DNA from: Marsupella aquatica
Taxonomy: Eukaryota; Plantae; Marchantiophyta
DNA length: 64,000 bases
Direction of reading: 5' to 3'
Assembly (NCBI GenBank): GCA_973895155.1
Contig: OZ316891.1
Coordinates: 20,782,169-20,846,168, forward strand
A program made the position numbers and the translations under genes. The notes under the pieces were generated by a model. The model saw only the letters and a list, made by a program, of their open reading frames with translations. It was not told where the DNA came from and did not search any database. Positions 2,311 to 62,658 of this stretch are shown here, piece after piece (position 1 is the first letter of the stretch; each line of letters opens with the position of its first letter).

Positions 2311-2329
2311 AACCCCAATTTAGACAAAA
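2311..2329 (+). repeat. Left terminal inverted repeat
   Basis: AACCCCAATTTAGACAAAA preceded by TSD TGAA. A subterminal CCAGATTTTATTAA (2349-2362) matches the right-end inner sequence, offset by 19 bp. Confidence 0.9.
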
Positions 2330-2742
2330 TTGGACTTCTGGACAATTTCCAGATTTTATTAAATACAATTAAATACAATTAAATACATTAAGCCCCATTC
2401 AAACCTATAATGATATTCTATAAATCAATCATACACTTGTGTTGTCATTGTCATTGATTAAACAAATTATGTGTACTCAAATCTTTAATCTCAAATTGCA
2501 CACTTTTGAGCGAGACCTTGAGCTATAGTAAGGGTCATTTACATAGAAATAAGGAAACATGTACAATCCATGGTTGGTTGTATTGCCTACAATAATCTTG
2601 AAATCTTTGGCGCCAAGCTATACTTGTCAAGTACATATTAAACTAAATTTACCAGTGTATCATAATAATGATACTTAATACTGCAGCTGCACTAAGTAAG
2701 TACTATCTTGTAATAACAATCATTTTGTATATCCAAGCAGAT

Positions 2743-5700
2743 CTATTCAACATTTTCTTCTCCATTTCCTGGTACCTCACTCTCAATGCATCTAGTAAGA
2801 TTATTTTGTGCTTTCTCAGCATGTCTTTTTGGAATTGAAATCAAACCAAATTTTCCAGTAGATCGCGATTTGAAACACCATAGCACAGTATTCACACTAA
2901 TTCTCTCTATTTCATACCCAGGATCACATTCCCATTTCTTGTTCCAACAATTGAGCCATCGTTCTTTTGCTTGCTCACATGCTGGTTGACCTCGTTTTTT
3001 TTGCATGACAGGTCGTAACCATCTCACATCACACATGTGTTCTATCTGGTTTTGATCATTTGGACTTCCCTCTTCCACATCACTCACCGCTTCTCCCAAA
3101 TAGATTGGGTAAGTATCCAAGTCGTGGGTGTCTGGTCTCACCATGACATAAACACCCTTTGTAACATCAATCCGTGGGTTAAAAACCTCACGTGGCTTAT
3201 CCTTCCAAGGCCCCACATAGTCTATTTGTGCATCCAACTCACACGCAACATTACGGTATGCTAATGGAACATGCTCCCTCCATTTGGATATAGGCCAAAA
3301 TCCGTGCACCAACTCATTTCCATCTTCCGGAAAATATTGTACTTCTATACCCAAAGTGCCTCTCACACGGTTCCAATATTCAATCAGTGACTCCCAACTT
3401 GTTTTTTGTTCCTCCACAATGTGACTTCTCCTCATGATCAATTCAAAAAAGTGCACTTGCTTCAGTAGACCTTCTCGAACCTCCTCCAACACTTTAACCT
3501 CTGTCATTGGTAACCTCTTTGGTGTTCCGGTTGGAAGGTTAGGACGTTTCTTGACTGTCCATGACCACATTTCAATTCCACCATTCGGAAGCCACCCTTG
3601 ATCCATTGCCTTTAGCTTGTATTGCATGCAAGGCATGCCATCCTCTCGAACATACAGTCGAAACACTCGAGGTTTCAAATGGCCCACCAATGTATCTCCC
3701 CCTTTCAACATATAAGGTGCTAAGTAACTTTTAAAATCAGGCACTTCTTGTACAAAATGGGGAACAGGATTTGGTTTTCGTGATTTCATTAGTAGCGACA
3801 TTAAATCTGGGAGAGTATACGATGGCTGCCTCATTAGAGCTTCCGAAAAATTACCAAACATTGCATCAACATCTTCATGAGTATGTCCGACCATCAGAAA
3901 TCCCAAATGAACTTCTTCGAACACCTCTCTCGCTGTCAAAAGTGACAAATATGCCAAAATGAATCTGTTTTTGTTATCTCCAGCACAATTATCAAGTTGT
4001 AACTTCAAGATCCTTGGCAATGGTCTATATAGCTGTGTCAAAGATGATGTTTCAGAAGCCCCTGAAAAATAAGAAATTTTAACAATCAGAACAATGGCAT
4101 GCATCTAGATTGTAATCTCAAGCACACTATTACTCAATCTCAACCAAAACAATATTTGAGATTTACCCACAGCCCACGGGTTGTAGCCTTTCTAAGAGGC
4201 TAATATTTTGGATCTAGAAATTAATTTAAAAAATGCGATTAGAAGATGAGATTCACTCCTAGAAGGATAGACTAGTTGCAACACCTAATCAATGCGTGTA
4301 CTTACCTAGACTATTGATATAGTCTATGTCTTCCTTGAATGCATCTTGAACCATTTCTCCCAAGACGGGCATTCTTCCAATTAACAAATTTGAAAAAAGC
4401 TCTGTAGAATTTGGTCCTTCAAGCAATGATTTCACCATTGGTACCGGATTTTCTAGCATTCAAAATATTGAATCCAAGGAACCAATGCAGGCATTAGGAT
4501 CAGCCGGCCACACTCCAATATTATACTGGGCAATTGCTTTTGGACCATGACCATGAGTCAAGATACCAGTAAGAGTAACCGGGACCCTCTGCACACCATC
4601 CAACGATTTTGGGCATCGTGGCATTCTCGGTAGTGCAGTCTTGCAATGATCCATCTTGTCGTGAATCATACACAAGACCTCCTTTGGCCTATGCACCGAT
4701 TCAAACCTCCAAGCATGATACAACATTCTCCCTTCGGTATGATCTTTGTGATGTCTGTCCTCATCAACCTTCAAAAGTTCCCTTTCCTCTCTTCCTCCAG
4801 TCATTTTGGATTTGCGTTCATTTAACTCACAACAAGTCGTGCACTTTGAGAAGTTACTCCCTTTCTTCTTTATCCCCACCTCCTTAACGTGATTGTTTCG
4901 CAGAACACTCATAGTCGGTTGGGAAACTGGACCAATACCAAACTCTTTGTTCCTAGAGTTCACCTTCTTTCTCAAATTCTCCCAATTCAAACCTATTGGA
5001 AGTTCTCTAAGTACTTGGCGGGTATTGTCATTCATAGTTCGTAACTTAGCTGGATGGTTATCTGCGCATTCGTCTATAATCCCTTTCATTGACATAAGCG
5101 CTTGGGAAACTCTTTCAGACATTCGTCGTTTTCCAAGATTCCCATGAGTACACATACTTGCCCCTGCCCTTACCATTTTCTTCACCTCATAAAACTGACT
5201 TCTTCCTTTTCCGTATATCACCCTCCACGCTTCCAGACAAACCCCTCTCCCATTGGTTCCCTCCATACCAACTATCACTCTACCGCTAACATCATGGACT
5301 GAGTTCACAATAGCAGTAACTTCATCTTCCTTCCGCATCTGATAGCTCTTTGCCCAATGTTTCTCTCGGAGATTATGTGCAAGGTCACGGTTAAAAAATT
5401 GGCAGCATTGTTCCTCACAACAATCCACCTTACTAATGTTTTTGGCATCCTCACGGTCTAGAAACTTGCTTTTCTTTGACAGTGAAATGTTGGCTACTTT
5501 ACTTCTCCTTGTAATGTTCACATAAGATCGCTTTCGACTGGATGCATCAATCTCTATAGGAATAGTGCCCTTGTTTGGAAAGCTCAACATATGACCTTCA
5601 CTAGCTCGCAACAAGCTGAGAGGCCAAGGGACAAGACAATTCCTGTATCTAAGGTGCTCATTTGTCGCGCCATCAACAAAATCAGTAATGAGTATCCCAA

Positions 5701-6187
5701 TGTGTGTGTCTCCGATGATAATTTCCCCTAATGTTGATCCTTGGGTCACAAAAGTAATCAGCGCTACAGCAAAATTAACATTTGCTTCATCAAACACTTT
5801 CACAACCATCCCAACTTGTGGTACAACTCGTCGGATAGTGCTAGGATCAACTTCCCCAGGGACACTATCACAGGCACTGTTAATATTGTCAACTTCATCA
5901 ACATGGACTTCAGGGTGTTTCTCTCTAAAGGGATGAACTCTGAGATCATTTTTATCCCAAACAAGAAAGGATCCAATCAAATGCTTCAAGTATTCTCCAT
6001 CAGAAAATATGAACTTTTCATCCAAACATTCAATAACCTCCACCATTACATGATCCGGACCTAACTCCACCGTGTGACAAATCCTGGTGGGATCACTACT
6101 AAAAATCTTTCCCATCCCAACCAATATCTTTGAGCCAAACAATCCGACCATGTCACCCACTTCAAAAGACAGGATGGTCGTAGACAT
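2743..6187 (-). pseudogene. Sola-like (DUF7869-type) DDD transposase, two exons (6187-4306, 4061-2743), ~1066 aa, one in-frame TGA at 4460-4462
   Basis: Motifs CC..CC, VCLEAWRVIYG, FSKCTTC, MIHDKMD, LQLDNCAGDNKN and FLMVGHTHEDVDAMF. The frame continues through the TGA (IF*MLENPVPMVK...INSL) to donor CTAG|GTAAGT at 4306/4305. The acceptor TTTTCAG|GG at 4062/4061 is phase-compatible. Confidence 0.85.
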
Positions 6188-6875
6188 TTTAGTTTTGCAA
6201 TAGCAATATATAATATTTGTTAGCCACTTTACATTATTCGGTTGCCCTTATCTCAAATTATCCGAATCCCAAAACGATGCCACTCTATCACAAAACTTTC
6301 TAAAAAAAAGAAGGTTCTGTAAAGATCAGAGAATAATGTTTTGGATATTATGTCATCTTTGTAGCTCAGATTGGAATTTAAGGTGCCCCACATCTGGGCT
6401 TTGTTGATTAACTTAACTCAAGGTATCAGTACCCTACCGCCCGCAGGTTGTGAACAATACTTATTGAGGTATCAGTACCCTGCCGCCCGTGGGTTGTGAA
6501 CAACATTGATTTCGCTTCATTCAAGAGATGCTCCCTCCAAGAAACAGTATTCTTTGTTATATATATATATATGTGCAACATCTACAAAAGGTGTCTAGCT
6601 AAGGGTTAACTGGCTCTAGTAAGTTTTGATACCAAGTATCATTGTGTACCCAACAATCAACTCAATACCCCACAATCCATGGGTTGCAGGGTACACAAAT
6701 TCATCGACCATTAGTAGGCTGGCGGCTGATAAACCTTATCAATAACTAGAATGTAATAACATTTTTATGAAAACATTACAAGAAATTCTCTTGAATTCTA
6801 TCAATCAGAGATGGAGGACCCTACAGCCTGTGGGTTGTGCGGTGTACAAATTTTAGGACCCCGGGTGTGGATATA

Positions 6876-6900
6876 TAAACCCTAAACCCTAAACCCTAAA
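6876..6900 (+). repeat. Short interstitial plant telomere-type repeat (CCCTAAA)x3 / telo-box upstream of the transposase
   Basis: TAAACCCTAAACCCTAAACCCTAAA. Confidence 0.7.
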
Positions 6901-7442
6901 TATCCCTATTTCCTCACGGGTTCCAAAGTAGGGTCACAAGAAATTATGATATTAATAATGAATATTGTCCCCTTTTGACACATGATAGTAGTTATCAAGG
7001 GTTCAAACTAGATTTGAGTTTATTCGGCTTATCAAACGGTTTAGATTTGATTTCCTGATTAAATTGTTTAATTTGTTACATGATGTTCGGATGTGGTCAG
7101 GAGTTCAATTTTAGGGTTGAGATCTCACTCCCTGACTGAATATTATGAAAATTAATAAGGGCTATTCAAAATTATGAAGGGCTATTTAAAATTGGTTTAC
7201 TATCTGAACAGATGATTGATGTTGTTTGTTCATAAAATGAGAAACACTTCACCTCAAGTGAGCAGCAAACTTAATTATTTCCAGCAACTGGTCAAGTCTT
7301 CAAGTGAAATTGTGATCTTAGATTTTGTGTTTTAAAGAATTTTAGGGTTTAGTAGTTACTCCAAAATTTTAGATTCGCGTACAACAAAATCCATTTCTAG
7401 AGCATATACAATATTGTATCCGATTCGAACTTTCACAAAGAA

Positions 7443-7505
7443 CATGAATTGAATGTGAGTACATGAATTGAATCTGAATCATGAATTGAATCTGAGTACA
7501 TGAAT
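7443..7505. repeat. ~19-bp tandem repeat, about 3 copies
   Basis: CATGAATTGAAT(G/C)TGAGTA repeated. Confidence 0.7.
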
Positions 7506-8509
7506 AGAGTTTACGTTCATCACATTAGAAACAAAATTGCTTTGATCAGTCACGGGATCGAAGAAATTTAACACACAGACTCAACCAGAAGAGATATAAA
7601 CAGGTTACAAATTGTACACAATGAACCAAACAATAAATTAGGGATTTGAAAGTAGACTGCATACCTTATGCTGAGTGACGACACTCTCTTGTAGCTTGAA
7701 TGTTGTTCCCGATCACTCCAGAGAAGCTAGCTCCTTATCGATCTCCTCAGGTAATCGAGCTCTCCCTAGATTACTCTCGGTCCTCTGATCGAATTGTCTC
7801 AACGTGGGTGACTTTCCTCGATCTAAATGAGCTCAGCCGGTAGTGCTCTCCTCTTGAATGACTCCTCTCCTCTAATCAAGCTCAGCCGGTTGAGCTCTCT
7901 CCCGCAAGTTTTAAGCTATTATGGGAGAGAGCCTTAACCGATCAAGCTCTCGACCAAGAAGTATCACTAAAACAATTGCTATACCTCAAACTTGAAACTC
8001 AGACGAGGATTGATTGAAGATGAATGCGCAATGTGAAATAAGCCAGTATCGTGACCACAACAAAGAGATTGCAAGACAAGCGAGACTAACGCGACCTTAC
8101 ACAAGCGGGTACACAAGAAACATGAGGACTGAAGTCGACTGAGGCTGGTGCAAGGCCTTACAAAAGAAACCTCGGCGAGAACTGAAGATTGAGGCCGGTG
8201 CAAGAGTCTGCATGACGATTCACGCTCACTCTAAGCATCATTCAAATTCAAATTTCAAATACAATTCTCTTGGAGGGAAAACTTGGATGCAATTTGACGG
8301 CCGGATCCACGTTTTGCTTATACTGTAGACGTTATAAAAATACGATGTTGGATCTACTATGTTTGTAATTACGTCAACACTTTCAACATTGCTTTTTCAA
8401 TCTGACAATACGTTACCTTCCAACATACAAACTAAATATTATTTCAGTTACGTTAAATATATGATTGGGATATTAAATGTACTGTAATATTACTATGGTA
8501 TATATTATT

Positions 8510-11150
8510 GTAAACATGGAGCATAGGGATACCTTAAGACAACCTCCTTAATTAGTTCAATTACACTATATATCCGGACCAGCTAGAGTTGCGCTAACAT
8601 GGAGCATGGAGATAATTTATCAAACCCCCTTCAACTATATATATATATCCAGCATTTATTAAACTATATTTCCATCCAAGGTTTCCCAAACATGAAGCCC
8701 ATGTGTACCTTATAAAATCCCTCTAGCTTGCATTAAGTTCTACTTCCTTCTAGGGTTGCACAAACATGGTGCATAGGTACTAATACTTTATAAACCCCCT
8801 TCAAAGTGGAGCATAGGGATACCTTATTATAATATCCCTCCAATTAAATTGCACTTCCTTCCATGTTGCACATACATGAAGCATTGGAGCATCACTCAGG
8901 ATAGTTACCTCATAAACCCTTCGAATTAAATTGTACTTCCAGTTAGTAGGGTTGCGCTAACTGTCCGGGTAACTGTCCCCCTTAATACTTTATAAACCCC
9001 CTTCAACTAACATGGAGCATAGGGATACGTTATAAATTAATACCAGCCCCTTCAATTAAACTAGATATATCTAGCTAGGGTTGGAGTAAGATGGAGCATA
9101 GCGACAAGGGTTGGACTAAGATGGAGCATAGCGACATGTTATAAACCCAACCCCTTAAATTAAACTAGATTTCTAGCTTGGGTTGCCCTAATTAACATGG
9201 AACATACTAGGGATAAATTGTAAACCATCCTCCATTAAACTATACTTCCAGGCATCCAGGGTTGCACGAACATGGTGCATGTACTACTGTACAGGTATAT
9301 TTTCTAAAACCCCGTTAGTTCCATGAAACTATATACTTCCATCCAGGGTTTCCTAAACATGAACTAAGCATTAGTAGCTCTAAGGTGTACCTTAATTATA
9401 AAACCCTGCTTGCACTAAGTTCTACTTCCTTCTACTAGGGTACCCCTTCCAACCTAATTGTACTTCCAGGTAGGGTTGAACTAAATACATGGAGCAGACT
9501 TAGGGATATATATATATATATATATGTACATTTAAAAACCCCTTGCTTTAAATTATACTTCCAGGCATCCAGGGTTGCACTAACATGGAGCATGGGTATA
9601 CGTTATAACCCCCTTCAATTAAACTAGATATGCAGCTAGGGTTGCGCTAATTAACATGGAACATACTAGGGATACGTTGTAAACCCCCTCCATTAAACTA
9701 TGCTTCCAGGCATCCAGGGTTGCACTAACATGGAACATACTAGGTATATTTTCTAAACCCCGAGTTCCATTAAACCAATGATATACTTCCATCCAGGGTT
9801 TCCCAAACATGAAGCATTAGTAGCTAGGTGTACCTTATAAAACCCTGCTTGCACTAAGTTCTACTTCCTTCTACTAGGGTACCCCTCCAACGTAATTCTA
9901 CTTCCTGGACCAGGTAGGGTTGAACTAACATAAAATTGAGCAGACTTAGGGATATATATATACGTACATTTTAAAACCCCTTGCATTATATTATACTTTC
10001 AGGCATCCAGGGTTGCACTAACATGGAGCATGGGTATACGTTATAAACCCCCTTTATTAAACTAGATATGCAGCTAGGGTTGCGCTAATTAACATGGAAC
10101 ATACTAGGGATACGTTGTAAACCCACTCCGGCGTTAAACTATGCTTCCAGGCATCCAGGGTTGCACTAACATGGAGCATACTAGGTATATTTTCTAAACC
10201 CCGAGTTCCATTAAACCAATGATATACTTCCATCCAGGGTTTCCCAAACATGAAGCATAATTAGTAGCTAGGTGTACCTTATAAAACCCTGCTTGCACTA
10301 AGTTCTACTTCCTTCTACTAGGGTACCCCTCCAACGTAATTCTACTTCTAGGTAGGGTTGAACTAACATACATGGAGCAGACTTAGGGATATATATACGT
10401 TTTAAAACCCCTCAGTTGCATTAAATTATACTTCCAGGCATCCAGGGTTGCACTAACATGGAGCATAGGTATACTTTATAAAACCCCCTTAATTAGTTCC
10501 ATTAAACTATATACGTTATTAAACCTTGCTTGCACTAAGTTCTACTTCCTTATAGGGTTGCCCAAACATGGGGCATAGGTATTTTTATAAACCCCCTTCA
10601 ACTAACATGGAGCGTAGAGATACCTTATCAAACCCCACGCCTTCAAGTAACATGCATGGAGCAGAGCAACACCATATAAAACCCCTTGGATTGAATTGCA
10701 CCTCCATCCAGGGTTGCACCACCATGGGAAATAGGGATCTACCTTATGAAATCCCTCGAATTAAATTGCCCAGGTTCCTTCCATGTTGCACACACATGGA
10801 ACCTAGGCTAGGGATACGTGATAAACCCCTCGAATTAAATTGTACTTCCAGTAGGGTTGCACTAACATGGAGCATGTATACTTATGGATACTTTATAAAT
10901 CCCACTTCAATCAATTAAACTATACTTCTAGCTAGGGTTTGACTAGCTAACATGGATATTAGGGATACCTTCTAAACTCCCCTAATTCAATTAAATTATA
11001 CTTCCATCGAGGGCTGCACAATGAACATGGAGAATAGCAATACCTGCTAAACCCTTCCATTAAATTAGACTTCTGTCCATTATTTACCCAAACATGGAGC
11101 ATAGGGCTACCTGATAAACCCCTGGCATTTAAGTATACTTCCATCCAAGG
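8510..11150. repeat. Internal satellite of the transposon: ~65-70-bp monomer with ~440-bp higher-order repeat
   Basis: The monomer resembles AAACCCCCTTCAATTAAACTATACTTCCATCCAGGGTTGCACTAACATGGAGCATAGGGATACCTTAT. Near-identical blocks are offset by ~440 bp (GATATATATA tracts near 9505, 9950 and 10388; duplicate spurious ORFs at 9619 and 10057). Confidence 0.9.
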
Positions 11151-11304
11151 AATCAACGTACTCAATCAAGTGATAGCATCAACGTACAGCAGGACGGGTA
11201 TTGTGAACTGGATGATGGTGACGTGTTTGCTCACTCGCGCGTGCACTAGATGATGGCGACGTTTTTCCCCACTCGCGCCTGTTTGAGTACTACCGATCAC
11301 GTTC

Positions 11305-11470
11305 AAGAACTGAATCAAATGATTCAGACTGCCAAAGACACCGAGTCGACATTGTGCGGAAGAACTGAATCGAACAAGTCAGATTGCCGAAGACACCGAG
11401 TCGACATTGTGAGGAAGAACTAAAGCGAACGAGTCAGACTGAAGGGAGTCGTCGACATTGTGCGGAAGGG
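11305..11470. repeat. ~55-bp tandem repeat, about 3 copies
   Basis: AAGAACTGAATC...TCAGA(C/T)TGCC.AAGACACCGAGTCGACATTGTG(C/A)GG repeated. Confidence 0.7.
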
Positions 11471-14302
11471 AGATTGAGGATCTATATGAGGTTGATCGAT
11501 ATGGCGATTCTAGAGACTACCATTTGATTCAAGAGGTGTTCAATTGAGAACTGATACTATTTTGCGGACGAACGTACAAAGCATTCATGAGGTGTTCAAT
11601 TGAGAACTGGATTGCTTTGTACTGATACTATTTTGCGTCGGGGCAGGGAGCTCTCTTTCTCCAAAAATGAGCTGGACATTTGAGGCATGCAACACCTTGA
11701 CTGGAACCTAAATCATTTCATTTGGTTCACTTTGTGAAGTCGCAAGAGTATATCTTCGACAATCGGAATAGTATCATTGTTTCTAGCAAGAAAGGAGGGG
11801 AATTAATTACCGTCGGTAGTTACTTTTAGTGGGTCGGACACTGTTGGGTTGAAATGCTGTTTGGATGGCAAGTGCGAAAGTGAATTGATGAATGAGGAGT
11901 TTTGTGTTGCTAGGTTGCATTTTTTGGAGGCACCAATGTGTTTTGCGTTGGTTGAGAGCAAACGTCGCGGGAGTGAGGCACGATGTCTTTGTATGTACAA
12001 GCTCTGAAAGGTACTAAAACTCACCTATATATATATTGTTCAAAGGCTTGTCAATCCTCCTGTCGAATGCTTTCCTAGCCTTGTGCTTCTTGGAATGCTT
12101 TCCTGCTTTCAGACTTCTCCTTTTAGACTTCTCAGACTTCTGTCAGCCTTCGAGCCCCTTCTCCCTAAGTATGTTGACTATGCTTTTTGCGATTTCAGAT
12201 GCAAATGTGCGTGACAGAGCCTGGACGATCCATTGTTGACTACGGATTTTGTGGTGACCACGTTGTGGAGAGCGGTATCCATCCATTGTCAATAATCCAT
12301 CTAGGTGTGATTGCCTTGCCTTGTATTGCTCGACTCATTGTTGGAGACTACATTGGACAGTAAATGATGTGTTTGCCATAATACGTGATCTGCTATGTGA
12401 ATGATCATGATCTACTATGTCAACAAGCACGATAGTCGCATTTGGGATCTCTCGCAGGCCGCTTATTCTGTGAGAAGTCTATGTTTGCATGGGTCTATGG
12501 AATGTTGTCAAATAATGTTATCGTTCTCAATCTTGATGCTTGATAGAGGAGAAGGAATGTAGTTGTTTAGGGTAGTAGTCCTTAAAGCCTGTGTTGTGGT
12601 TGTTGTTTGAATTTAATTTTTCATAGTTGTGGAGCAGTCAAGTTGGTCCGTTTGTGTGCCTCCTGATAACTTAAGCTGCAACCCCGGTTGCACCAAATCT
12701 GTTGTTTCTTTGTTAAAGGTGACATTAGTCATCCCAATAATTTCTAATCTGCCTACAATCAAGGTAGTCAAGTAGCTCCAAATTCAAAGATCATCAATTG
12801 TCTTTCTTCAAAGACATCATTCATCTGGCAATCGTTCATCGTTCATCTAGATATCTGGAAATCGTTCATCATTCATCATCGTTCATCTGGATATGTAAAG
12901 ATGACATTTTTAGTTTGAGGTCAGCCGATCATTCATTGAGCTATGTAATCCCATAGGTAGAGGTTGTCAGGTAGGGATCTATTTGAAATGAGGTGTTGTT
13001 TTGGAATGTACAGCGATTGGTGTTAATAGTATCCTAAACCCTGCTGCCCTTGTTCTCAAATTCATTGGTTTCATAGATTGCTATTGTAGTCCAGAGAGCC
13101 CAGCTATGTGGGCCCTCTACAAGTACACAGTAGGTCACTGAGCCAAATGTCATTATTTTTGGAAATTTGGGAGGCACGAAAGTTTCTCGGCTCTTTGTTT
13201 CAATATGTTGTGAGTAATGTGCTGTTGAGATTGGTTCTCCTGTACTAATTACTCCTTCCCTTCAAGTACTCTGTCAAAGATGAAATCCATGGCCTCCTAA
13301 TCAGATAAGTGAGTATGGATGATTCCTGTGATTGAGATTGTGTCTCACTCTGGCTTTGGGTCAAATGTTGTGCAGGTCCATGGTGCTCAGATTCCATAGC
13401 CGCCAGGGATTTAACAACAATTTGGCCTAATCGTCCCAAGCATCTACTCCGACCTGCTCCTCAAAAATTTGCACCCTTGGAATAATTATAGGTAAGCCCC
13501 TGGTGTCATATCTAAATGTAATGAAGATGTCAAAATTTCAGTATCCATTGACTAGTTAATCCATGATTGCATCCACTATTCATACCCAATGTTGTTGTGA
13601 TAAAATCCTATTGTATCAATGCACATTTGTTAATTTGTTTAGTTTCCAGATTGAAATTTTCAATCTGTCTGTCGATCTTCTTGATCTCAATGTGATTCCT
13701 TCTGCCCGTAGTTGGTACATCTACCGCAACTGCATCACTCTGCATAAAAAAACAAGTGTGTCAATTTGTTTTGCAGGTTTCTAGTGCTTCTCCTGCCTAC
13801 ATCCTTGACAAGCATTGTGCGGGTATAGTCTACCTGCGATGCCTCAATCTTACACACTGAAACAACAATCTGCTGAAGTTTGAAGAGATTAGAGCCCAAC
13901 AAAATCCGGGAACAAAAATCTTGAGGTAAGAGCTTTTGGAACTCATTGTCTGGTTCATAGTAAAGATTGTAGAGTTGAACTCGTCCATGAATTGTATGCA
14001 ATTGCCACCAATATTAAAGAGATTATGAGGAAAGACTGTTATCAGGAGATTAGCAATTGTTTGTAATGAGTACTATTACTATTAAAGAAGGGTAATGATT
14101 CTTGATCCACAGGGGCTACTCTAGCCAAAATATAGATCAATCATATATAAACTATGAAGGGTTGTCTGTCACATAATCCTAGCCCCTCAATCACACCCTC
14201 TCGAGCCTAGCTAACTAGATTTTGGGTCAATTGCTAATGAATATATTGATTAATGAGTATACTATTGATCCGGGGGTTTAGGAGGCTCATAAAACAAGAG
14301 AG

Positions 14303-14870
14303 TACCTCACCACCCACGGGCCGTGAGGCTCACTTGGATTGACTGTCTAGCATACCTCACCACCCGCGGGTTGTACGTGCAACTCACTAAAAGCTCAACA
14401 TATCTCACCACCCGCGAGCCGTGAGGCTCACTCAGACCGACTGTATAGTATACCTCACCACCCACGGGCCGTGAGGCTCACTCAAACCCATAGTCTAGCA
14501 TACCTTGCCACCCGTGGGCCGTGAGGCTCACTCAGACCGACTGTATAGGATACCTCACCACCCGCGGGCCGTGAGGCCACTCAGACCTACACTCTAGCAT
14601 ACCTTGCCACCCGCGGGCCGTGAGGCTCACTCAGACCGACTATATAGCATACCTCACCACCCACGGGCCGTGAGGCTCACTCAAACCTACTATCTAGCAT
14701 ACCTTGCAACCCGCGGGCAGTGCGGCTCACTAAGACCGGATGTCTAGCATACCTCGCCACCCGCGGGTCGTGAGGATCACTTGGACCGACTGTGTAGAAC
14801 ACCCCACCACCCACGGGCCCTGAGGCTCACTTGGATCAACTGTTTAGCATACCTCACCACCCGCGGGCTG
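14303..14870. repeat. 50-bp tandem array of hairpin/palindrome units (12 cores) directly upstream of the cargo gene
   Basis: Unit TACCTCACCACCCGCGGGCCGTGAGGCTCACTCAGACCGACTGTATAGCA starts at ~14303, 14353, 14401, 14451, 14501, 14551, 14600, 14650, 14700, 14750, 14800 and 14850. It contains a CCTCAC..GTGAGG stem and a CCCGCGGG palindrome. Confidence 0.95.
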
Positions 14871-14965
14871 TTGGCTGTGTTTGTCATCCATTCAAACAAA
14901 CTAACTATAGAGAGACCTTCCTTTTTAATTAAATAAAATTCCTTGTTTTTTGTGTGACTCCAGAT

Positions 14966-17900
14966 ATGGCTCCTAGAAATGGCAGCTCCCGAACAAAGAG
15001 CAAGACCGAAAGCTCAATTGTTGACCAGCTTGATAAGATGAAAATGATCAAAACATATCGAGGGAAAAAGATACGGGACCTTACCTCACCGGAAGCCAGC
15101 TCAATTTATAGAGTGAAGTCAAGCAACGTCTTTGATTGGGGATTAGTACTCCAGAATAAGGAATTGCGAATATGTTTCACGCACAAGGAGACGTTACATA
15201 TCGTCATGGATGCAGAAATTTTGGGATGCATCTTCAAGCGAAATATGGGGCTTGATGACCTACAAGAAGCATTGGTACTTCTCTTTGACGAAAAAGAAAC
15301 TGGAGAAACAATTGGGGTTTGCTTTGATCGAATGGATTATGGAACTTTCTCCCAGCGGAAAGTCACAGAATATCTCACCTCAAGTTCAGAATTGCTTGGT
15401 TCGAATTGTTGGGAGGGCTTTCCCATTGCACCATTGGTTCCAGATCCAGAAAGTATCTCCAGATACATCAATGCCATTTTGGAGTTCTCAAAACAACCGT
15501 TCACCGAAATATTTTCTGTCACCAGGAAAGGGGGAATTTTGGCATCAAATCCTCCAAAGGATATCACGACGAAGAACGTGGATGAATTATTTTGCAGCTT
15601 TCTAGAATCATACTCTCATCTGAACATCTTTCAGAGCAAGACTTTTGAGGTGCCTATTGAGAGATGTCACCTGGCACCAAATCACATAAAATGTCGTGAC
15701 TTTGATGAAGATTATGCCACCGAACTGAAGGCTGCTTTCTTTGGCTACTCCTCGATAACCTTTCAAAAAACTCTCTGCTTTCTTGTCCCAATAACATGGG
15801 ACTCAAAGAACAAATCAAAAGGTTACTATGGAACTCCTCTAAAAGAGGCACCGCAGAGTGATGATATTACCAACACTTGTCACTTCTGGATTCTTGGTGG
15901 GCAGCACACAATAATGGCATACAAGGCGATCCTCAAGGAAGATGATAAGCGATGCACATTTCGGGAGGATCTTCGCAAGGTTCAGGCAATTATGTTCTGG
16001 TCCCCATACAGTTTGAAAGAAAACCTCACGATGATGGGGCTCTCTCGAGCCTTGAACAATATCTAGAGAACTCAACTTGACGAGACTAACTTTCCGTTGA
16101 TAGCGTCCCAAGCACGTGCAGTATGGAAAGAGTTTGGAAGTCCAAGAAAAGAGAATGCTCAGGCAAAGGGGTCAAAATGGAAGGTAAATTATCAGACACT
16201 TCTAGATAGCATGAGCCCTACAACCCGCGGTTTGTGTGGTAACATTGAACATAATGACTTGAATCTGTATTTTCTGTAGGGTTCTAATATTATATTTTGT
16301 AATGTTTTATATTCAGGTGTTCCTTGAAGCTGCCAAGATTATTGTTCCATGGGCACGGCAGATGAAAACGTTTTCATTTACCGAGCTCAATCCGTTTATC
16401 TTTCATATGAGCCATGCAACATTCAGCAAATGGATGCGGGTATATGAGAAGTCTCGTACAGGATCCCTTATAGCGTTCAATGGTAAAACGCAAGCTCAGG
16501 CAATAACTTACAGTAACCGGAAGACTTGGCAACTGAATAGGCGATGCTTCCGAGATCTACAAGGGATGGAGGAAGCTGACATAGACAAGGTTGCCGCCTA
16601 CTTGTTGGAGAATTCAAAGATATCTCTTTTGAAGGACCGACCTCATTCAAAAGATTATGATGCTGAAGAAGCCGAAAAGTTTATTTCCATGGAAGAATTT
16701 TGTGTCAACAAGAAGTAGAAGCGAATGTTTGAGATAGATCTGTTGGAGAACTTGGGTGACGGTGGCATGAAACGTACTGAATTGAATAGCCTGAAAAAGA
16801 TTGAGAGGAAAGTTGAGGTTGATATCTTGTGCAAGAGGTATCATCTTAATAAAGAAAAGCTGAGCAGGATCAGGGATTCACTAGGAGAGGAGTATCTCAA
16901 CAAGGCATCGCAGAAAACAACCAGTGTTGGAACAATGAAGAGTCTTCTCCCAGAGGCTTTTAAGAGCGTAATTGCCGCAACAAAGAACTCCATTGACGAG
17001 TTTGGAAACCTGAAGCCTCCCCAAATCAAGGATATCCTTCAGTTACACTCGCGGAAAGGTCTGAAAACAAAGAAATTTCTTGACGAAATCTCTGAGTCCC
17101 TGAGACAACGGGTAGACTTTTTCTATTTTGACTCCACTATTCTATCTGATGACGGTCCATTCATATCCAGTTTTTACTCTATGTTCATCAGAGCAATTAA
17201 ACAGATGGGGACGGTAAATCATGTCCATGTCTCAGATCCTATTGAGTCTATTTTCATGATGAGAGAGTTAGTGTCAACTCCAGGATATTTCCCATTCCAA
17301 ACAACTTACGTCCAGAGAAGAGGCACCGAAAAGTCTCATATTTCCCTCTTTAACACAGAGCGGGATGTTACATATACTGTGACATATGCATTTTGTCAAC
17401 CTCTCTTATCAAAATCTACCGACATGACAAAGATAGGGGAAGCAATTAAGTCCAGTCTACAAACTCGGGGAACTCTCCTTAACTTTCAGGAGTCTAAAGA
17501 GGATCAGGCTGCTAGGTCTTTCCCTGGTGAGAAAAGTATTCTCTTTTTCCAATACTTGACTCGACTGTTTCTCGACAACGGAAAGCATGCTGTCTGTTTT
17601 GGAGAAGGGCTAAACTTGGTCAAATGCCTCCTGGTAAGCTTTCAAGTATTATTACAATTCTATTTTTGAATAGCTTTAACCTTATCTTAAGTTCCTCTAA
17701 CATCTTGCTTGTTTATTCCAGGAAGAAGGAGTTAAGGTTAGATCTTATTGTAAACGATCATTTCACACAGAAATGAGTGGGTATTTTGGTGCCTTGTATC
17801 CTAGTAAAGCACCATGTCTCGACAGAAAAAGGCTTGAGGCAATGATGAATGCGAAGATATCTCGAGGAAAAACCTTCAGAGAAGTCAAAGAAGATGTAAT

Positions 17901-19652
17901 TGATCATTGTAAAAGCATGCTCACATATAGTGATGAAAACGTTGAGAGAGTTTTAAAAGAGTATGAATTGAGTAACCTCCTCAGCCAGAATTGGATATAC
18001 TATTTCCCATCAAAGATGCCAGTTGGACCACTTAAAGGTTAGTCAGCCGAAACCATATACTTGATTAATTTTAATACATTCACTAACTTGATTGCACAAA
18101 TGAAATTTTGAAATCTGATTGTTGTTCCTCTGTTTCAGATGAGAAGTCTACTATCTTTGAAGATGAAATCAACACTGGAGAGTATGAATCAAGTGAGGAG
18201 GAGCCAAACGATGCAGAAGAACCAGGGTCAGAATCTGAAAACCAAGACGATGATGAAGAACCAGGGTCAGAATCTGGAAACCAAGACGAGAGCTCAAATG
18301 AGTCCATGAGTGCAGACAATCATTCAAAGAAGCGGAAGAATATGGGTGACGAAAGTGACATGGAGACTTTACAGCATAAGAGAAGTCAAAACAGGAGACG
18401 AGTTGATACTCGTCAAAAGTATACAAAAAGGAAGCAGAAACCAACCAGCGGTACCGATGACTCCGAACAGGAGTTTGATGACAATTGGAGGGAGCGGCGG
18501 ATGAAAGAAAAACAAGATCAAAAACAGCAAGCAGATGAGAAAGAGCAAAGGCAATTTACATACACTGAAGAAGGAGGAGGGGCGGATGAGGAGCAGGGAA
18601 AAACTAACCTGGATGGTGAAGGAGATGAAGATGGTGATCGTGATGAGAATGAAGGATATGGAGGTGGTGCAGGAGATGAGAATGAAGGAGATGGAGGTGG
18701 TGATGAGAAGGAAGGACATGGAGGTGATGATGAGAAAGAAGGACATGGAGGTGATGATGAGAAGGAAGGACATGGAGGTGGTGCAGGAGATGAGAATGAA
18801 GGACATGGAGGTGATGATGGGAAGGAAGGAGATGGAGGTGGTGATGAGAATGAAAGGACATGGAGGTGATGATGAGAAGGAAGGAGATGGAGGTGGTGCA
18901 GGAGATGGAGGTGGTGATGAGGAGCAGGGAAAAACGAAGCTGGATGGTGAAGGAGATGAAGATGGTGATGAGAAGCAAGGAGATGGAGGTGGTGATGACA
19001 AGGAAGGAGACCGAGGTAGTGATGACAAGGAGGAGAGCAACAAACAGAGCGATGGATACAAGGGGAAAAATGTAACAGAAGATGGAGAAAGAGAAGAAAA
19101 CTACTGGAACAAAGCCGGTGATAATGATATTGTGAAACTAAATATCCGGAATTATTTTCGATCAGTAGTAAGTCTTGAAGACACAACTCGGCCAGATAAC
19201 ATTTCGGTTGCAGACTGGGAAGTATACTTCCCCGATGAATTGAAACTTCATGCTTGGAATGGGAGACAATTTTGGACTACTGTTTTGAATGATATCTCAA
19301 CTCTAATAACACCTTCAGAGAGAAAACTCTAATAACACCTTCAGAGAGAAAAGAGTTCGAGAGAAATAAAATATTTATGGAAGAAGCTTGCGGTCGGATT
19401 GGAGAGCCCTCCATTAGCTTGATGGCCGAGGAGAATGCTTTAATTGACATGACCCAATGCGATCATGCTTGGGCAAAGTTGAATGAAGATACTTCTTCAG
19501 CTACAACCCATGGGCCGTCAGATGCGAGGTCAGATGGCAACGAAGGTGATCAGATGGAACCAAATTCTCTCAATGAAGAACAAGAAAATGAAACAGATGA
19601 AGCATACGCCGATGTTTTGCTCAATATGCCACTACCTTTCCAAGGGCATAAG
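14966..19652 (+). pseudogene. Transposon cargo gene, exons ~14966-16183, 16317-17633, 17722-18037, 18139-19652: ParB/Srx-like domain + degenerate beta-class DNA MTase-like domain + acidic repeat
   Basis: Phase-compatible GT/AG introns join the ORFs. Lesions are in-frame TAG at 16064 and 16716, a +1 frameshift near 18855 and a 26-bp duplication at 19301-19352. Motifs: FEVPIERC..RDFDEDYATELK..FWILGGQHT..LSRALNN (ParB-like); RVDFFYFDS and FPGEKSILFFQYLTRLFLDNGKHAVCFGEG (MTase-like). Domain calls are by eye. Confidence 0.7.
18585..19040 (+). repeat. Coding minisatellite, 27-33-bp units encoding G/D/E-rich repeats (GHGGDDEKE / GDGGGAGDENE)
   Basis: GGACATGGAGGTGATGATGAGAAGGAA-type units, plus a duplicated DEEQGKT.LDGEGDEDGD block. 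Confidence 0.9.
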
Positions 19653-19968
19653 GTAAACTTTCTATTATCCTAAGTAGCCTTAATGTACTGTCTAGTTTTA
19701 TTTCATCGCCTCTGGTTTATATTTTTGAGCTTATTCTAATATCAAATCACCTCATCATGCAACCAGGTAAAGGATGTTCCCACTTTCAGAAAGAGAATTT
19801 CTGCATCGGACAGAAATGGGATACACATCATAACTTTGTGATGAGATATATCAACTAAAAAAGCAGCTACTTCAAAGAGTAGAAATGGGGTCTTGCAAAA
19901 ATTTAGTTTTGTTTGCATAGATTTTATAAAACTGTAATTCTCTCATTATTTTTTTTCTTGATGTACAG

Positions 19969-20661
19969 GTGAAAAAAGTCATTATTCTTGATGTAAACAA
20001 AGTTATTTTGTTAAGTGTGTATTCTACCAAACTACTTGACCAAAGTGTCGGAGTTCGGGTCGGGTCTAAGTTCATCTACAAGAGGCGGTATTTGCGGGAG
20101 TTTCTAGATTTTTGCAAAGCAAACTTCGACGTTGCAATTTGGTCCTGCATGCAATGGCACAATCTTAAGCCTATCCTTCAAACTGTATTGACTAGTGATG
20201 ACAGAAAACAGTTAAAATTTATTGCTACTCAACAGGACACAGTTCGATTTGGCAACCATTTCAAAACCCAAAAACCAATTTTCTTGAAAGAGTTGAAAAA
20301 TCTGCGTTCGAAACTAGAAAATGACTATTATAGTGAAAACATTATACTCATTGATGACTCTCCTTACAAAACGTGCCTAAATCCATTTTACTCTTCTCTC
20401 TACCCTGAACTGTATTCTGGACAGATAGCGGACAATTTTTTCCCCAACACTCTTATTCCATACCTCAGAACACTCCTGAACTCTTCCGAAACAATGCACA
20501 AAACCATACAAAACAAATATCCTACTTGGTCATTGTTTGCACTAGTTGAAGATTGGGAAGAAAATAGAATGATCTGGTCAACTAATGACACTGTGAGGTT
20601 AGAGAGTGACCCACATCACCTCAAACGATTTAATGAGTACGCTGACATTGTTTTTCAATAA
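19969..20661 (+). CDS. FCP1/NIF-family HAD phosphatase-like domain exon (cargo)
   Basis: KKVIILDVNKVIL, YKRRYLREFLDFCKANFDVAIWS, KPIFLKELK, ENIILIDDSPYK..LNP. It begins right after acceptor TACAG|GTG and is probably spliced to the upstream cargo gene (phase 0 donor at 19653). Confidence 0.8.
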   Translation: MKKVIILDVNKVILLSVYSTKLLDQSVGVRVGSKFIYKRRYLREFLDFCKANFDVAIWSCMQWHNLKPILQTVLTSDDRKQLKFIATQQDTVRFGNHFKTQKPIFLKELKNLRSKLENDYYSENIILIDDSPYKTCLNPFYSSLYPELYSGQIADNFFPNTLIPYLRTLLNSSETMHKTIQNKYPTWSLFALVEDWEENRMIWSTNDTVRLESDPHHLKRFNEYADIVFQ

Positions 20662-20777
20662 ATGTAAGGACTCTTTTTTTCTCATGCATATTTAATGTTA
20701 ATGTTTTATTTAGTTTATTGCCTCTTTTGTTTTGTATTATTTAATGCTCAATTGCTGACATGTTTTGTGTTGTGCAG

Positions 20778-21401
20778 ATTATAAAATTTGTTTCTACCCG
20801 AAAATTACTTCTTTTCCATGTTGAAAGCATTCTCGTCTTCTCCGTTGGGTTCTCAAGGCATTTAAGAAATTCGACTGCCTTCTGCGTTAAGAAGAAAATG
20901 ATCTTTCCTAGACCATTTGTTCAAGAGTTTTTAAACTTTTGCTCTGAAAACTTTGACATTGGATTTTGGTCCCGGAATCATACTGATTGGTATGAAGTGG
21001 CCGATCATGTTGATCCACTTCTCACTGAGAAGGCTCTTGAAAGTTTTAAGATACTATGGTGCCGACGAGACGACCTTAAGTCAAATCAGTGTGGAATGAA
21101 TATCAAGATTGTTATGAAAGAAGCCCCTGGGTATTTATATGAAAATGTAGTACTCTTAGGAGAGGCAGCATCTATAAGTTTTGATTCTCCATATTATGCT
21201 GCACTTCATCCAAAACCCTTTTACGGTGATCTAGGTGACCAGTTTTTAGAAAACACTCTCATGCCCTATCTTCTAAGACTTGCTCACTCAAAGGTTAGTG
21301 CACATAGATTTATTAAATCCAACTATCCATTGTGGTCAATGAGGCCTAGAGAAGAATTCCAAAAAAGTAGAGACATTAAGGTGTCTATTTACAAAGATTA
21401 A
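20778..21401 (+). CDS. Second, more degenerate FCP1/NIF-like domain exon (cargo)
   Basis: RKLLLFHVESIL, FPRPFVQEFLNFCSENFDIGFWS, ENVVLLGE, PYYAALHP and DQFLENTLMPYL..NYPLWS parallel the preceding domain. Acceptor TGCAG|ATT at 20777/20778. The catalytic Asp residues are lost. Confidence 0.7.
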   Translation: MIKFVSTRKLLLFHVESILVFSVGFSRHLRNSTAFCVKKKMIFPRPFVQEFLNFCSENFDIGFWSRNHTDWYEVADHVDPLLTEKALESFKILWCRRDDLKSNQCGMNIKIVMKEAPGYLYENVVLLGEAASISFDSPYYAALHPKPFYGDLGDQFLENTLMPYLLRLAHSKVSAHRFIKSNYPLWSMRPREEFQKSRDIKVSIYKD

Positions 21402-21770
21402 ATAGAGTTATTTAAATTTGGTTTTAGATTAAAGACTACGTTTCATATTGTCTGTGATACTACATTCACTATAATAAAAAGTGTCCAAGTTACATTATCT
21501 TAAAGCTCTATCTTGAATTACTCTCTATTGCAAATGAATTTGATGTTTATGTTAAATTTTTCATTCCGAGTAAACCTCCATGTACTATGTACACTATATG
21601 TTCACAAACAGGATATTTTTTATTGCTACGCTCCATGGATTGTGAAAGTATTATCCTTGTGTATGGTTTAAAGAGAATCATATACCAAAAAAATACATGT
21701 ATAATACAATCATAATTAAATATAATATTAAATAATATACACTATGAATTCCGGACTTAATAAATTCTGG

Positions 21771-21789
21771 TTTTGTCTAAATTGGGGTT
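21771..21789 (-). repeat. Right terminal inverted repeat
   Basis: TTTTGTCTAAATTGGGGTT is the exact reverse complement of 2311-2329 and is followed by TSD TGAA. Confidence 0.9.
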
Positions 21790-24700
21790 TGAACCGCAAA
21801 AGGACCCATGTCTCCAGGAAAAAGCGTCTTTAACTGTTCATTCTGGGATTGAAGGCAGTTTGGCTGCAGTGCCTGCCTGTTGTTCTCTCCACAACCTGCA
21901 CATGGAAAAGAGCGGAATTTAGCACCAGTCCTGCATTGCCTTCCCAACGTTGCATGCTGGGTGTCCGATCAGCGTGTCCGATCATCCGTATTCTCTGAGG
22001 CGCATTTTCTTGTGTGGGCCCACGGAATTTGGCGGTAGCTCTCATGGAGTTGGGATCCTTGAATGCATCTCTGGACTAGATGTTTTAGACCTAACAGCTC
22101 TTGTTGCCAGGTTTGCCTTTCAGAGACAGTAAGTGGATGCAAGTATTTGCACACAGTATCATGACGCCAAAACTTGCCCTCTTTAGAGCTTCGACCTTCA
22201 TGCTCGCAGAAATATTCTTCTTGTGGCAGTCATATTACCGCGGATCGTACAGGACAGTGGATGAGGTCTAAACTCTAATTATCCCTCCTGAAAACTCAGT
22301 CTAAGTCTGCCAAAAGAGAGCCTGAGTGGATCGAAAGGTGAATGTTTGTGTCCTACGTTATCTCCATTTACTGACGTTCACGGCAGTCTTTGGCGATTGG
22401 AGTCGGAAAAGTTGAAAAGGAACAACAACTACAACAGTTGTCTGCATGTCTTGTGTTAGGAACTCCTTTCTGCATCCCTATGTCAGTGTGAGAACTCCAT
22501 ACTTATATCGGGACGTTAAAGGCTTGCACTCTACAGTAGAAAGGGATGACCCTAATCCGACGCCGGGCGTTTGGATATTTTGATCCCGAGCCACTTCGCA
22601 GTTTTTGTTAAATTAGCAGAGAATAATAATTAGGTCTGCTTCCAATCTGGAGTTGAGTTCATGCACACAGAGAGTAGGCTTGCATTCCAATTCCAGACTG
22701 AAAGTCCGATCGACCGGTCTTGATAATTATTACCAACTGACCAATCCGCTTATAATACAATACGTCTCTACAAAATGACCAAAGTCTGTCAACAGTCTCG
22801 TCAAGGGCATGAAGGTCCAGAGGACTGAATTCGAGACGAGGGAGTGCTACGGTACGTACGTAGGGCCACCGTACGTCATGTGCACCTTCCTTTCTTTCCC
22901 ATGGTAGTTCACTTACTTACCTGCTAGATAGTTGTACATGGGTCTACTCGCTCTCCTGGGTGTCACGCTTGAATGGCAATGACGGGAGCACCATGGAAAG
23001 CCGAACTAGTTGTATAGATTGCACAAAAAGGTGCGCCTACAGTTTCCATTTCTTTTATGAGAAGCGAGATGAGAAGTTGAGCTAGCCAAGCCAAGGCAAA
23101 CCAAGCCTGTAGTAAACAGTGCAAACTGCGTACCATTGTGTACTACTTCATCAGAACAGTGCTGTATCATTCCGGTCTGACGAACGGAATCTAATGTGGT
23201 GATCCTACGAAATCTCTCTCGCGCGCTTTGCACAGCACGGCGTCAGGTTTCCTGACTCGGGTAAGCTTTTACATTACAGTGCCGGACTTTGCAGACTTAC
23301 TTTGGAGGGCCGGTGGGGCTTGGGAAAAGTAGCAGCGACATTAGTGACAACGCGAGGTGAACATTTACTCTGCGTTGCAGCATGCATTTTTTGATAAAGG
23401 TACCCTGGAGGATTTCCCGGCATTTGGACATATATTGCGTGCCGATGCTACTTTGCATTCAGTTCTTTCCCGTCTTGCTCTGGCTCCACAAGGTATTACT
23501 CGTGATAAACGTGAAACGTCGCTGACGTGCGCGCATCTAGTCGATTGCGAAGTCAAACTAAGTATCAACTGCGATTAAAGTCCTTTGTGTTACTGCTTTC
23601 TTGCTCATTGCGTCTAAACTCGAGAGTTCTTGAGACTGATGCCCTTTAGAAGTATTGAAATGTTTGGAGGATGATCGGCTGCTTTCGCAAACAGGAGTTC
23701 ACTCGCTGCAGAGAGCAGGACATCCATCCGTCAAGAAATAGATCGGTTTCGAGTATAATTCCGTAGAGCTCGAATGGCTTTCAAATCAAAAGTATAGTCT
23801 CGTTTCGAACCATCGGGATCCGTAACTAAGATTCCTGTCGGTGTTGGGTTCGTTGAATAGTGAACCTCCCAATTTGACGCATCCTCATGTACTTTACAAC
23901 TGCCCTTGGTATTCGTCAACCGGATCACGGTGCATGCAAGTTTTGCATTCAGTTGACAGAGTCGGTCACAGCAGTGTCTTCGAAACCCGCATCATTAGCT
24001 TTTACGAGGGAGAGAGTTCGCATGTCTAGCTCTACGGATTTCAAAACAAAAAGCTGCTCCTCAGGCAGTCTTAAATTGATAAAGTATTGAACCTGGCTTT
24101 TATCTCCAGGCTCTGATGCAGATTCCAGTGGCCCCTCCCTACCACTCAGGCTCAGTCACGGATATGCTGAAGAGCTGTTTTACAGAACACATGAATCCAT
24201 AGCTGGAAGCTGGGGACGGATTGCGGGTAGGTGTGTGACTCTCAAAAAGTTCCCGGGAGGTCGACAAGCGAGGTCTAGACTCGGCGCGAACTGAAACATT
24301 TTTTGGAACAGTACGTTGCACATCATGTGGATGTAGGAAAGGAATATCTCAAGCTGCCAGATCGAGGGTCGGAGATTGTCTGAACCTATATATGGGCCAA
24401 ACTTCTATCTGCTTACCTGCTCAATTTAGACCACAGTTGGCAAGCTGTGGGTGAGATCCATAAAAAAAGTATCAAGTGGTTCACCATACATGATAATGCT
24501 CCACCCACAGTGTGTGCATCTCCAAGTTTTGACGTCACAGGACTAAATGCTTCGCAATACATATATACACTGGCCGAGCCTAAATGATTCCCTCTGAGAA
24601 CCTAAAGCCTCACTAGTAATTGTACTGTCAGGATGAGTCTCAAGATTCTTCTCGCTTTTGAAAATTTTCAATTCCGATTATGATCAGGGATGTAGGCTCG

Positions 24701-35969: not shown

Positions 35970-36858
<889 letters not shown>

Positions 36859-45600: not shown

Positions 45601-46657
45601 TAGCTCCGGTGTATGGTCCAACGTTACCAGGCTCAGATCCACTTCGAACATGAGCAGCAGCCTTTTCATTTCCTGCAGCATAGTCCCAGGAGTTGGACCT
45701 CCGGCTACCCTTGAGAGAACCTGAAGTTGGGGAAGGAACTGGTGCATGCCCACTTGCTGCACCATTGTTGTGGACTCCCCTGCCACTGATGGAAGCAGCT
45801 GGATTAGTGATGGGAGACGTACCAGCCTTCACAGGCCCCCCGTGTGGAAGAATGTTCCCAAAATTCATAATCCTCCCTACAGTGGGACTGCCTCCAGAAG
45901 AACTTCCGCCGCTGGAGCTACTGCCAATGGATTTCGGGCTCTCTGCTCTGGGACTCCGGCCTTTGCTGCTCGCACTACTAGAATCCAAATCCGATGATTT
46001 GAGACCACCACCACTGGAATTATCGTCACACAAGTTTCCCACCCCCTTGATGATCTCACCGAAAGCGAACCCATCCGCATGAATTCCCTTCACGTGGATC
46101 CTCTCGTTGGAGAGCTCTCCACTGCTTTTGCGGCTGATGTTGTGGTTGTGAAATGGTGGCGTCCCTGCAGTGAAGAGCTCTCCACTACTTTTGCGACTGG
46201 GTTGCAGATTCCTATTTGCACCGATTTGAACGCCTCCTTTGGTGGTCTGCTGAACCGGACTGACTTCAGGAGTGGTGAAACCTGGACTCTGACCCATCAT
46301 CCCTCCAGTAGACCTCCGTCGCTCGATTCCGGGTCCACCCGAATTTGCCCCAAACCCAAACCCGTTTCCGTTAGGAGATTCGGACTTGAAGCCCCCACGA
46401 GCTGCTTTCAGACCACTGTCTAGGCGAAATCCGTCTTTGGATTGATTTTCCTGAGCAAAATTCTCCACCCCATTCAAACGATTGTGGATCACATTGCTGT
46501 AGTCTCCAGCTCTGTGGTAGCTCGGACCACTCGGCATGGGGTCCACGTGACCATTCCCTATGGTTGCCCCATAAAGGTGTCCACTGAAAATGCCACCGTA
46601 CAAGTCGAATCGGGTGTTACCACCATGCTTCTTCACGTCTGCCTGGCATTGGGCCAT
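42654..46657 (-). CDS. TTL: TPR repeat-containing thioredoxin-like protein (TTL family); exons 46657-45219, 44768-44573, 44401-44232, 44051-43718, 43534-43327, 43112-43006, 42806-42654
   Basis: Ser/Gly-rich N-terminus followed by TPRs ([42 protein letters not shown]; [22 protein letters not shown]; [11 protein letters not shown]). The C-terminal thioredoxin-like domain has WSERC instead of WCGPC and ends [21 protein letters not shown]. All six introns are GT-AG and phase-consistent. The start codon is less certain. Confidence 0.93.
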
Positions 46658-62515: not shown

Positions 62516-62658
62516 ACCGCGTGTTAAATTTACGTCAACCGTACAACCAGAACATAAACCAATACACTATATTTCTGATTTATAAACCAAATGATTTGAA
62601 CAACATGTGTCTTGGTTTATGTTCTGGTTGTACGGTTGACGTAGATTTAACGCGCGGT
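62516..62658. mobile_element. 143-bp foldback MITE, Mutator-like (9-bp TSD)
   Basis: 52-bp inverted arms (62516-62567 / 62607-62658, 3 mismatches) flanked by CTAACAAAA direct repeats (62507-62515, 62659-62667). Confidence 0.85.

Follow-up and report, generated by a model that had tools for sequence, protein, structure and literature searches.

A putative ParB-like and methyltransferase-like accessory gene in a likely giant Sola1-like transposon of the liverwort Marsupella aquatica

What is a gene that recalls a prokaryotic ParB domain joined to a DNA methyltransferase doing inside a plant transposon, and is the resemblance real? The question is raised by a locus of the liverwort Marsupella aquatica (assembly GCA_973895155.1, contig OZ316891.1, positions 20,782,169 to 20,846,168), which we analyzed as one window of 64,000 nucleotides; all coordinates below are positions in this window. 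A preliminary description had assigned the gene as cargo to a transposon with a DUF7869 transposase, and this assignment is borne out by the element ends, a target-site duplication (TSD) and a Pfam match of the transposase to PF25273 (E 2.9e-40). Outside the cargo gene, the element and its borders comprise the following features.

2307-2310: left target-site duplication TGAA, identical to 21790-21793
2311-2365, plus strand: left terminal inverted repeat, starting with AACCC; 20-bp exact core, with the likeness resuming past an indel of ~19 nt
2743-6187, minus strand: Sola1-like DUF7869 transposase gene, exons 6187-4306 and 4061-2743, 1066 codons
8500-11150: degenerate repeats of ~75 bp and 438 bp, arrayed between the transposase and cargo genes, with units built on AACATGGAGCATAGGG
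14303-14868, plus strand: 50-bp tandem array, 11.4 copies, ending ~100 bp ahead of the cargo ATG; candidate binding sites
21752-21789, minus strand: right terminal inverted repeat, with GGGTT at the end
21790-21793: right target-site duplication TGAA

The element thus delimited is 19,479 bp long (2311-21789); its ends are AACCC/GGGTT, and the 4-bp duplication TGAA flanks it on both sides. Self-comparison of the sequence gave a 20-bp exact inverted match between 2310-2329 and 21771-21790, the sole one apart from a local hairpin. The cargo gene on the plus strand and the DUF7869 transposase gene on the minus strand stand head-to-head within this single element. Its terminal inverted repeats and 4-bp TSD are those by which Sola1 elements are recognized, and we take DUF7869 to be equivalent to the Sola transposase. 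A preference for AWWT targets is the hallmark of insect Sola1; the TGAA site departs from it but agrees with the bias of the Ectocarpus Sola1 to end in A. By these sequence features, the element is likely a giant Sola1-like DNA transposon.

The transposase retains the acidic motifs HDKMD, LDNC, and GHTHEDVD, and its reading frame is broken by one in-frame TGA (4460-4462); like the cargo gene, it is decaying. Upstream of it lie 3.6 copies of TAAACCC (6876-6900), presumably a plant telomere-type repeat. Some 2.7 kb of the element (11150-13900) contain neither a long open reading frame nor a long direct repeat and are possibly a decayed nested insertion. The unit of the 50-bp array contains a 22-bp imperfect palindrome with the centre CCCGCGGG, and in 12 array units 12-18 of the 22 positions are self-complementary. 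Single sites of the CCCGCGGG type, a pattern picked post hoc, occur at six places in the element beyond the array, including the vicinity of the transposase start and introns, and at one place outside the element. All palindromic sites lie at least 1.9 kb inward from the element ends, and the array itself is at the cargo promoter.

The cargo gene starts with the ATG at 14966 and is interrupted by three GT-AG introns, 16184-16316 (133 nt), 17634-17721 (88 nt), and 18038-18138 (101 nt). Its exons, and two reading frames downstream of them, are as follows.

14966-16183, plus strand: exon 1, a family-specific N-terminal region, then a ParB/Srx-like domain (~15641-16081)
16317-17633, plus strand: exon 2, a helical linker, then a beta-class amino-methyltransferase-like region from ~17076
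17722-18037, plus strand: exon 3, likely the final strand and helix of the methyltransferase-like domain, then 80 further residues
18139-19652, plus strand: exon 4, an acidic Gly-rich tract, 34% Asp and Glu over 238 codons
19969-20661, plus strand: FCP1/NIF-like HAD phosphatase frame 1 (PF03031, E 3.6e-14; UBLCP1 structure 3shq, E 3.2e-4)
20778-21401, plus strand: FCP1/NIF-like frame 2 (PF03031, E 7.4e-9), first Asp motif lost

All peptides quoted in the preliminary description were found on the plus strand at the places given for them; in exon 2, the motifs FDST, PGEKS, and CFGEG begin at 17127, 17523, and 17595. When exons 1-3 and the start of exon 4 (to 18860) are spliced by script, the resulting 1191 codons contain two stops only, both TAG: codon 367 in exon 1 (16064-16066) and codon 540 in exon 2 (16716-16718). 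Two more lesions lie in exon 4, a frameshift at ~18850-18870 and, at 19299-19352, a duplication of 26 bp. Contigs from three public sequencing runs (X1, X3, and X4) span the cargo gene at ~99% identity. The earlier proposal to repair the stops from TAG to CAG agrees with these runs: position 16064 is C (CAG) in all three, and at 16716 the main contigs have C in X3 and X4 (two of three runs) and T in X1. The 26-bp duplication is missing from X1 and X3, and X4 carries a stop of its own. Among the differences listed for these copies, synonymous and non-synonymous changes number 2 and 8 in X1, 7 and 19 in X3, and 4 and 12 in X4, the synonymous fraction without selection being 0.33. Since the listed coding differences are mostly non-synonymous and lesions are present, the cargo locus is judged to be decaying; the present copy is decayed, dead, and ordinary. 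More distant copies exist as well, since many contigs match the region of FWILGGQHT alone.

The FCP1/NIF-like frame 1 may be the C-terminus of the cargo protein, because the donor of exon 4 (19653) and the acceptor ahead of 19969 share phase 0. Frame 2 can be linked to the cargo gene only tentatively. The DxDx(T/V) motif is absent from both frames, its place being taken by LDVNK in frame 1 and FHVES in frame 2.

Relatives of the protein were sought by several routes. Three relatives of exon 1, with identities of 42-67%, were found among 172 candidates, and 23 relatives of exon 2 at E <=0.001 among 1.84 billion representatives. Two of the 10 exon-2 relatives that were looked up are NCBI proteins of the liverwort Calypogeia fissa, one of which spans the exon 1/2 junction. 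Nine relatives reach the end of exon 2, and the next residue is Val in eight of them, which fits read-through of the same GT donor. The relatives of exons 1 and 2 thus back the view that the cargo gene is a real spliced gene. In open frames that are 26-67% identical, blocks of conserved sequence suggest that the protein was under selection as long as the elements were active. Neither tblastn nor pattern scans revealed prokaryotic or viral relatives of the cargo protein, and word-index searches among long proteins gave no match. Three metagenome pattern matches were obtained, two of them chance-like. The remaining one (L002, positions 500-560), on a short metagenome contig, resembles a degraded relative and reads FWIIGGQHT.

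The identity of the exon-1 domain was approached with standard searches and with a purpose-made test. Scans of the window proteins and their relatives against Pfam, PHROGs, NCBIfam, PADLOC, and PDB sequences yielded no ParB or methyltransferase match, and a DUF6551 match on window protein P0004 was below significance (E 0.16). For ParB, hhalign gave 0.3%, and hmmsearch was likewise non-significant. A profile of the DGQHR family (114 viral proteins) compared with motif-keeping shuffles was unconvincing (51/286, 12/252, and 70/268), with hhalign at 27%. The model of exon 1 built from a five-row alignment had a pLDDT of 37.5, too low for fold comparison.

In the purpose-made test, which like its methyltransferase counterpart below was devised once the hypothesis was known, four ordered modules from 89 viral ParB proteins were laid over a six-row profile of exon 1. 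The resulting chain scored 15.0, a value reached by none of 400 column shuffles and none of 400 block shuffles; the controls gave 1.3 for the reversed profile and -6.5 for the exon-2 profile. Placed singly, three of the four modules fell on the expected sites, FEVPIERC..ELKAAF, LCFLVP, and FWILGGQHT. The end of the chain falls on ALNNI-RTQL, the counterpart of IIENLQREDL, and the last module alone did not find its expected place. Without the GxxR module the chain scored 11.9, barely over the 10.5 of the reversed profile. A lead came from the Atlas, where, at 0.96 (193/256 features), residues 205-366 (15578-16063) stand beside clusters of fungal DUF3723 and one unnamed cnidarian cluster; DUF3723 is annotated on 31-47% of the members of the matched clusters. 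The assignment of the exon-1 domain as ParB/Srx-like has moderate support at the level of sequence.

The G-x-(H/R)-R motif predicted for this domain was not found: the sequence at the nucleotide-motif site is GGQHT in all four rows that cover it, and the arginine of GxxR is present in none of the four. According to the accessible parts of the respective papers, CTP binding by ParB requires GERR (bioRxiv 2024.12.04.625172) and the sulfiredoxin pocket is formed by His-Arg (PMC4619093). With GGQHT replacing GERR or GxHR, a CTP clamp is unlikely.

The methyltransferase-like part was treated in a similar way. A match to PF01555 was found in none of the 23 exon-2 relatives. On the single sequence, an HMM of 51 viral beta-class methyltransferases was equalled by 174 of 500 shuffles, and the module chain was marginal (27 of 400 shuffles). 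The alignment by hhalign of PGEKS..CFGEG to HPTQKP..DPFxGSG received 0.4%. Five methyltransferases stood among the top 20 of 201 viral ORFs ranked by the family HMM, which is no enrichment since 78 of the 201 are methyltransferases. The Atlas matched N6_N4_Mtase clusters at 0.87 (132/256 shared features), which is a lead only, and the single-sequence model of the region had a pLDDT of 35.1, too low for fold comparison.

Modules from the same 51 viral enzymes were also laid over a 13-row family profile of exon 2, from which 10 of the 23 relatives, covering the N-terminal half only, and P0025 were omitted. The chain scored -8.1 versus shuffle means near -25, a result obtained in 0 of 400 trials in three nulls, and the reversed profile gave -26.9. 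Placed singly, the catalytic (DPPY) module falls on FLDE..VDFFYFDSTI and the SAM module on SFPGEKS..CFGEGLNLVKC; the two middle modules alone did not find their expected places. In the chain, the catalytic module precedes the SAM module, which is the beta-class order. Eight single members, which are related and thus not independent, scored 5.5-22.4 versus a mean of 2.1 and a maximum of 14.0 for 76 real viral decoys, and four of the eight exceeded the best decoy. A beta-class methyltransferase-like identity of the domain encoded by exons 2-3 is thus moderately supported.

The erosion of DPPY and FxGxG noted in the preliminary description holds throughout the family, and the ParB nucleotide motif is lost too. 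PPY occurs in 0 of 11 rows, with the Asp before it kept in 10 of 11; DPFxGxG occurs in 0 of 10 rows, with a CFGEG-like sequence in its place and an F-G-x-G-like turn in most. In exon 3 of the present copy, Cys occupies the acidic position for SAM binding. The accessible text on the rotifer N4CMT reports that its activity was abolished when the SPPY residues were lost (PMC8885841). The domain is likely a pseudo-enzyme across the family, not merely in the present dead copy. The proposed fusion of ParB and beta-class methyltransferase stands in part: the module tests, the Atlas lead, and a published look-alike speak for it, and Pfam, PHROGs, NCBIfam, PDB-sequence, hmmsearch, and hhalign searches do not.

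The look-alike is Sola1-1_Ec32 of Ectocarpus, which, like the other published systems below, is compared as far as the accessible parts of the sources go. This element is 21.5 kb long; its termini are AACCG-CGGTT, and its 4-bp TSD tends to end in A. An accessory gene, which runs opposite to the transposase, encodes a 1104-aa protein with ParB-like and N4C/N6A methyltransferase domains, and the best match of the transposase is a Physcomitrella Sola1 (PMC12477816). The present element shares with it the giant size (19.5 vs 21.5 kb), the AACC.. ends, the 4-bp TSD ending in A, and, by published description alone, an accessory gene opposite the transposase with the same two-domain order. It differs in its land-plant host and in its terminal inverted repeat, which is short compared with 282 bp in Ectocarpus. 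Further distinguishing traits, relative to the published description, are the loss of the catalytic motifs in the present family, the acidic tract, and the NIF-like frames.

In the red alga Bostrychia, the Plavaka accessory gene PAG2 combines PF01555 with SET, and PAG3 a ParB-like domain with a 2OG oxygenase (bioRxiv 2025.02.11.637652). Here too a giant DDE transposon carries ParB-like and N6_N4 methyltransferase cargo, with tandem inverted-repeat arrays beside the ParB-like gene. Unlike the present element, it has an EnSpm/Plavaka transposase, its ParB and methyltransferase reside in separate genes, and the methyltransferase is Pfam-detectable. Phage and prophage loci with ParB and N6_N4_Mtase, and the ParB-HTH Dam clade, provide further ParB-linked amino-methyltransferases, of prokaryotic origin and taken up by eukaryotes (PMC4738411); these proteins keep the catalytic motifs, unlike the present family, which is without a detectable prokaryotic relative. 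MpDN4MT1 of Marchantia and the bdelloid N4CMT are also amino-methyltransferases of the beta-class type in eukaryotes. Unlike the present protein, both are active enzymes of host genes, with TSPPY or SPPY, and there is no evidence of kinship; as described, the Marchantia enzyme lacks extra domains and N4CMT is fused to a chromodomain (PMC8885841).

In fungi, DUF3723 (PF12520) is conserved cargo of Starships (bioRxiv 2021.12.13.472469, accessible text). The ParB-like part has its best Atlas feature match (0.96) with DUF3723, and both are cargo of giant transposons. Unlike DUF3723 proteins, the present one has no Pfam DUF3723 match, Starships are tyrosine-recombinase elements, and the likeness is one of Atlas features, not of alignment. 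DUF3723 itself may be an unrecognised ParB-like protein. In the literature that we searched, with most subscription journals outside its range, neither a land-plant version nor DUF7869 was treated, and no paper dealt with both DUF3723 and ParB. The design of a ParB-methyltransferase accessory gene is already in print for algae, and its novelty was overrated in the preliminary description; new here are likely the land-plant host, the family-wide catalytic loss, and the NIF-like tail.

What might such a protein do? We favour, with a probability of roughly 0.55, a non-catalytic ParB-like and methyltransferase-like accessory protein that binds palindromes of its own element and helps to maintain the element's expression. 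The ParB-like half and the adjoining helical region would bind the CCCGCGGG-centred palindromes, to which the dead methylase fold may contribute DNA contact; the acidic tract, possibly together with the FCP1-like domain, would act on chromatin or RNA polymerase II, so that the element stays expressed. The binding sites are predicted because the palindromic array adjoins the cargo gene, as for the ParB-like PAG3 of the red-algal Plavaka. The binder of the palindromes could instead be the transposase.

The strongest competitor, itself rather unlikely, is a role in transposition and not in expression, in which the protein would coat or bridge the element and assist the transposase in pairing the ends of a 20-kb unit. 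ParB-like proteins are known for palindrome binding and DNA bridging (bioRxiv 2024.12.04.625172, accessible text), and giant elements of 17-21 kb repeatedly carry ParB-like genes in the sources cited. The location of the sites, far inside the ends and with the array at the cargo promoter, speaks against this role, as does the loss of the CTP-clamp motif, and the acidic tract and the NIF-like frames suggest transcription instead. A chance likeness of an alpha/beta domain to methyltransferases, with only the DUF3723-related ParB-like part being real or neither part, is less probable again. Such a coincidence would account for the blank standard searches, the hhalign values below 1%, and the Atlas value below 0.9 (132/256 features), and on the methyltransferase chain even the exon-1 profile, which is shallower, reaches -14.1, vs -8.1 for exon 2. 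It would leave unexplained that two methyltransferase modules land independently on the predicted sites in the right order, and that a published element with matching ends and an equally long TSD has the same two-domain gene (PMC12477816, accessible text).

Improbable in turn is the view that the amino-methyltransferase of intact members is active, its motifs being unusual, and places 4mC or 6mA on the element that encodes it. The Asp of the DPPY position and the F-G-x-G-like turn have been kept, self-marking has been proposed for the Ectocarpus protein (PMC12477816, accessible text), and a 4mC enzyme exists in liverworts; but PPY and DPFxGxG are missing even from open reading frames at 26-57% identity, and the present copy has Cys at the acidic SAM-binding position. 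Domestication of the locus into a host gene common to related species is, in our view, the most improbable. Runs from two or more organism codes do contain a near-identical copy, but most of the listed differences are non-synonymous, stops have arisen independently in the present copy and in run X4, and the element ends and TSD are intact.

In brown and red algae, ParB-like and methylase-like genes are found in giant cut-and-paste transposons and have been proposed to bind and modify the DNA of these elements; with the present element, the design extends to land plants. The protein was kept while both catalytic signatures were lost, so selection likely preserves DNA binding and not methylation. 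The 22-bp palindrome and the cargo protein make a concrete candidate protein-site pair, and an unannotated plant family is linked, as a lead, to the Starship DUF3723. A bolder version, which we regard as doubtful, posits an early-land-plant lineage of giant Sola1 elements in which a double pseudo-enzyme with an acidic tract and a CTD-phosphatase-like domain blocks silencing via parS-like palindromes, its ParB-like module being kin to the Starship DUF3723. Were this true, self-binding ParB-derived proteins would be a device common to giant transposons of plants, algae, animals, and fungi.

The remainder of the window holds several minor features. A spliced host gene with TPR repeats, which we take to be TTL-like, occupies 43300-46800 on the minus strand. 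Frameshifted fragments at 36270-38810, also on the minus strand, are possibly a processed pseudogene; none of the four fragments scanned had a Pfam match, and by their motifs they presumably resemble the Myb protein CDC5. A hairpin at 62516-62658, with 52-nt arms of 94% complementarity and a 39-nt loop, is MITE-like or miRNA-like and has no Rfam match. There are also a short inverted repeat with 28-nt arms at 50610-50692 and an array of 13-nt units of the GCAAAGCAGAG type at 48490-48760.
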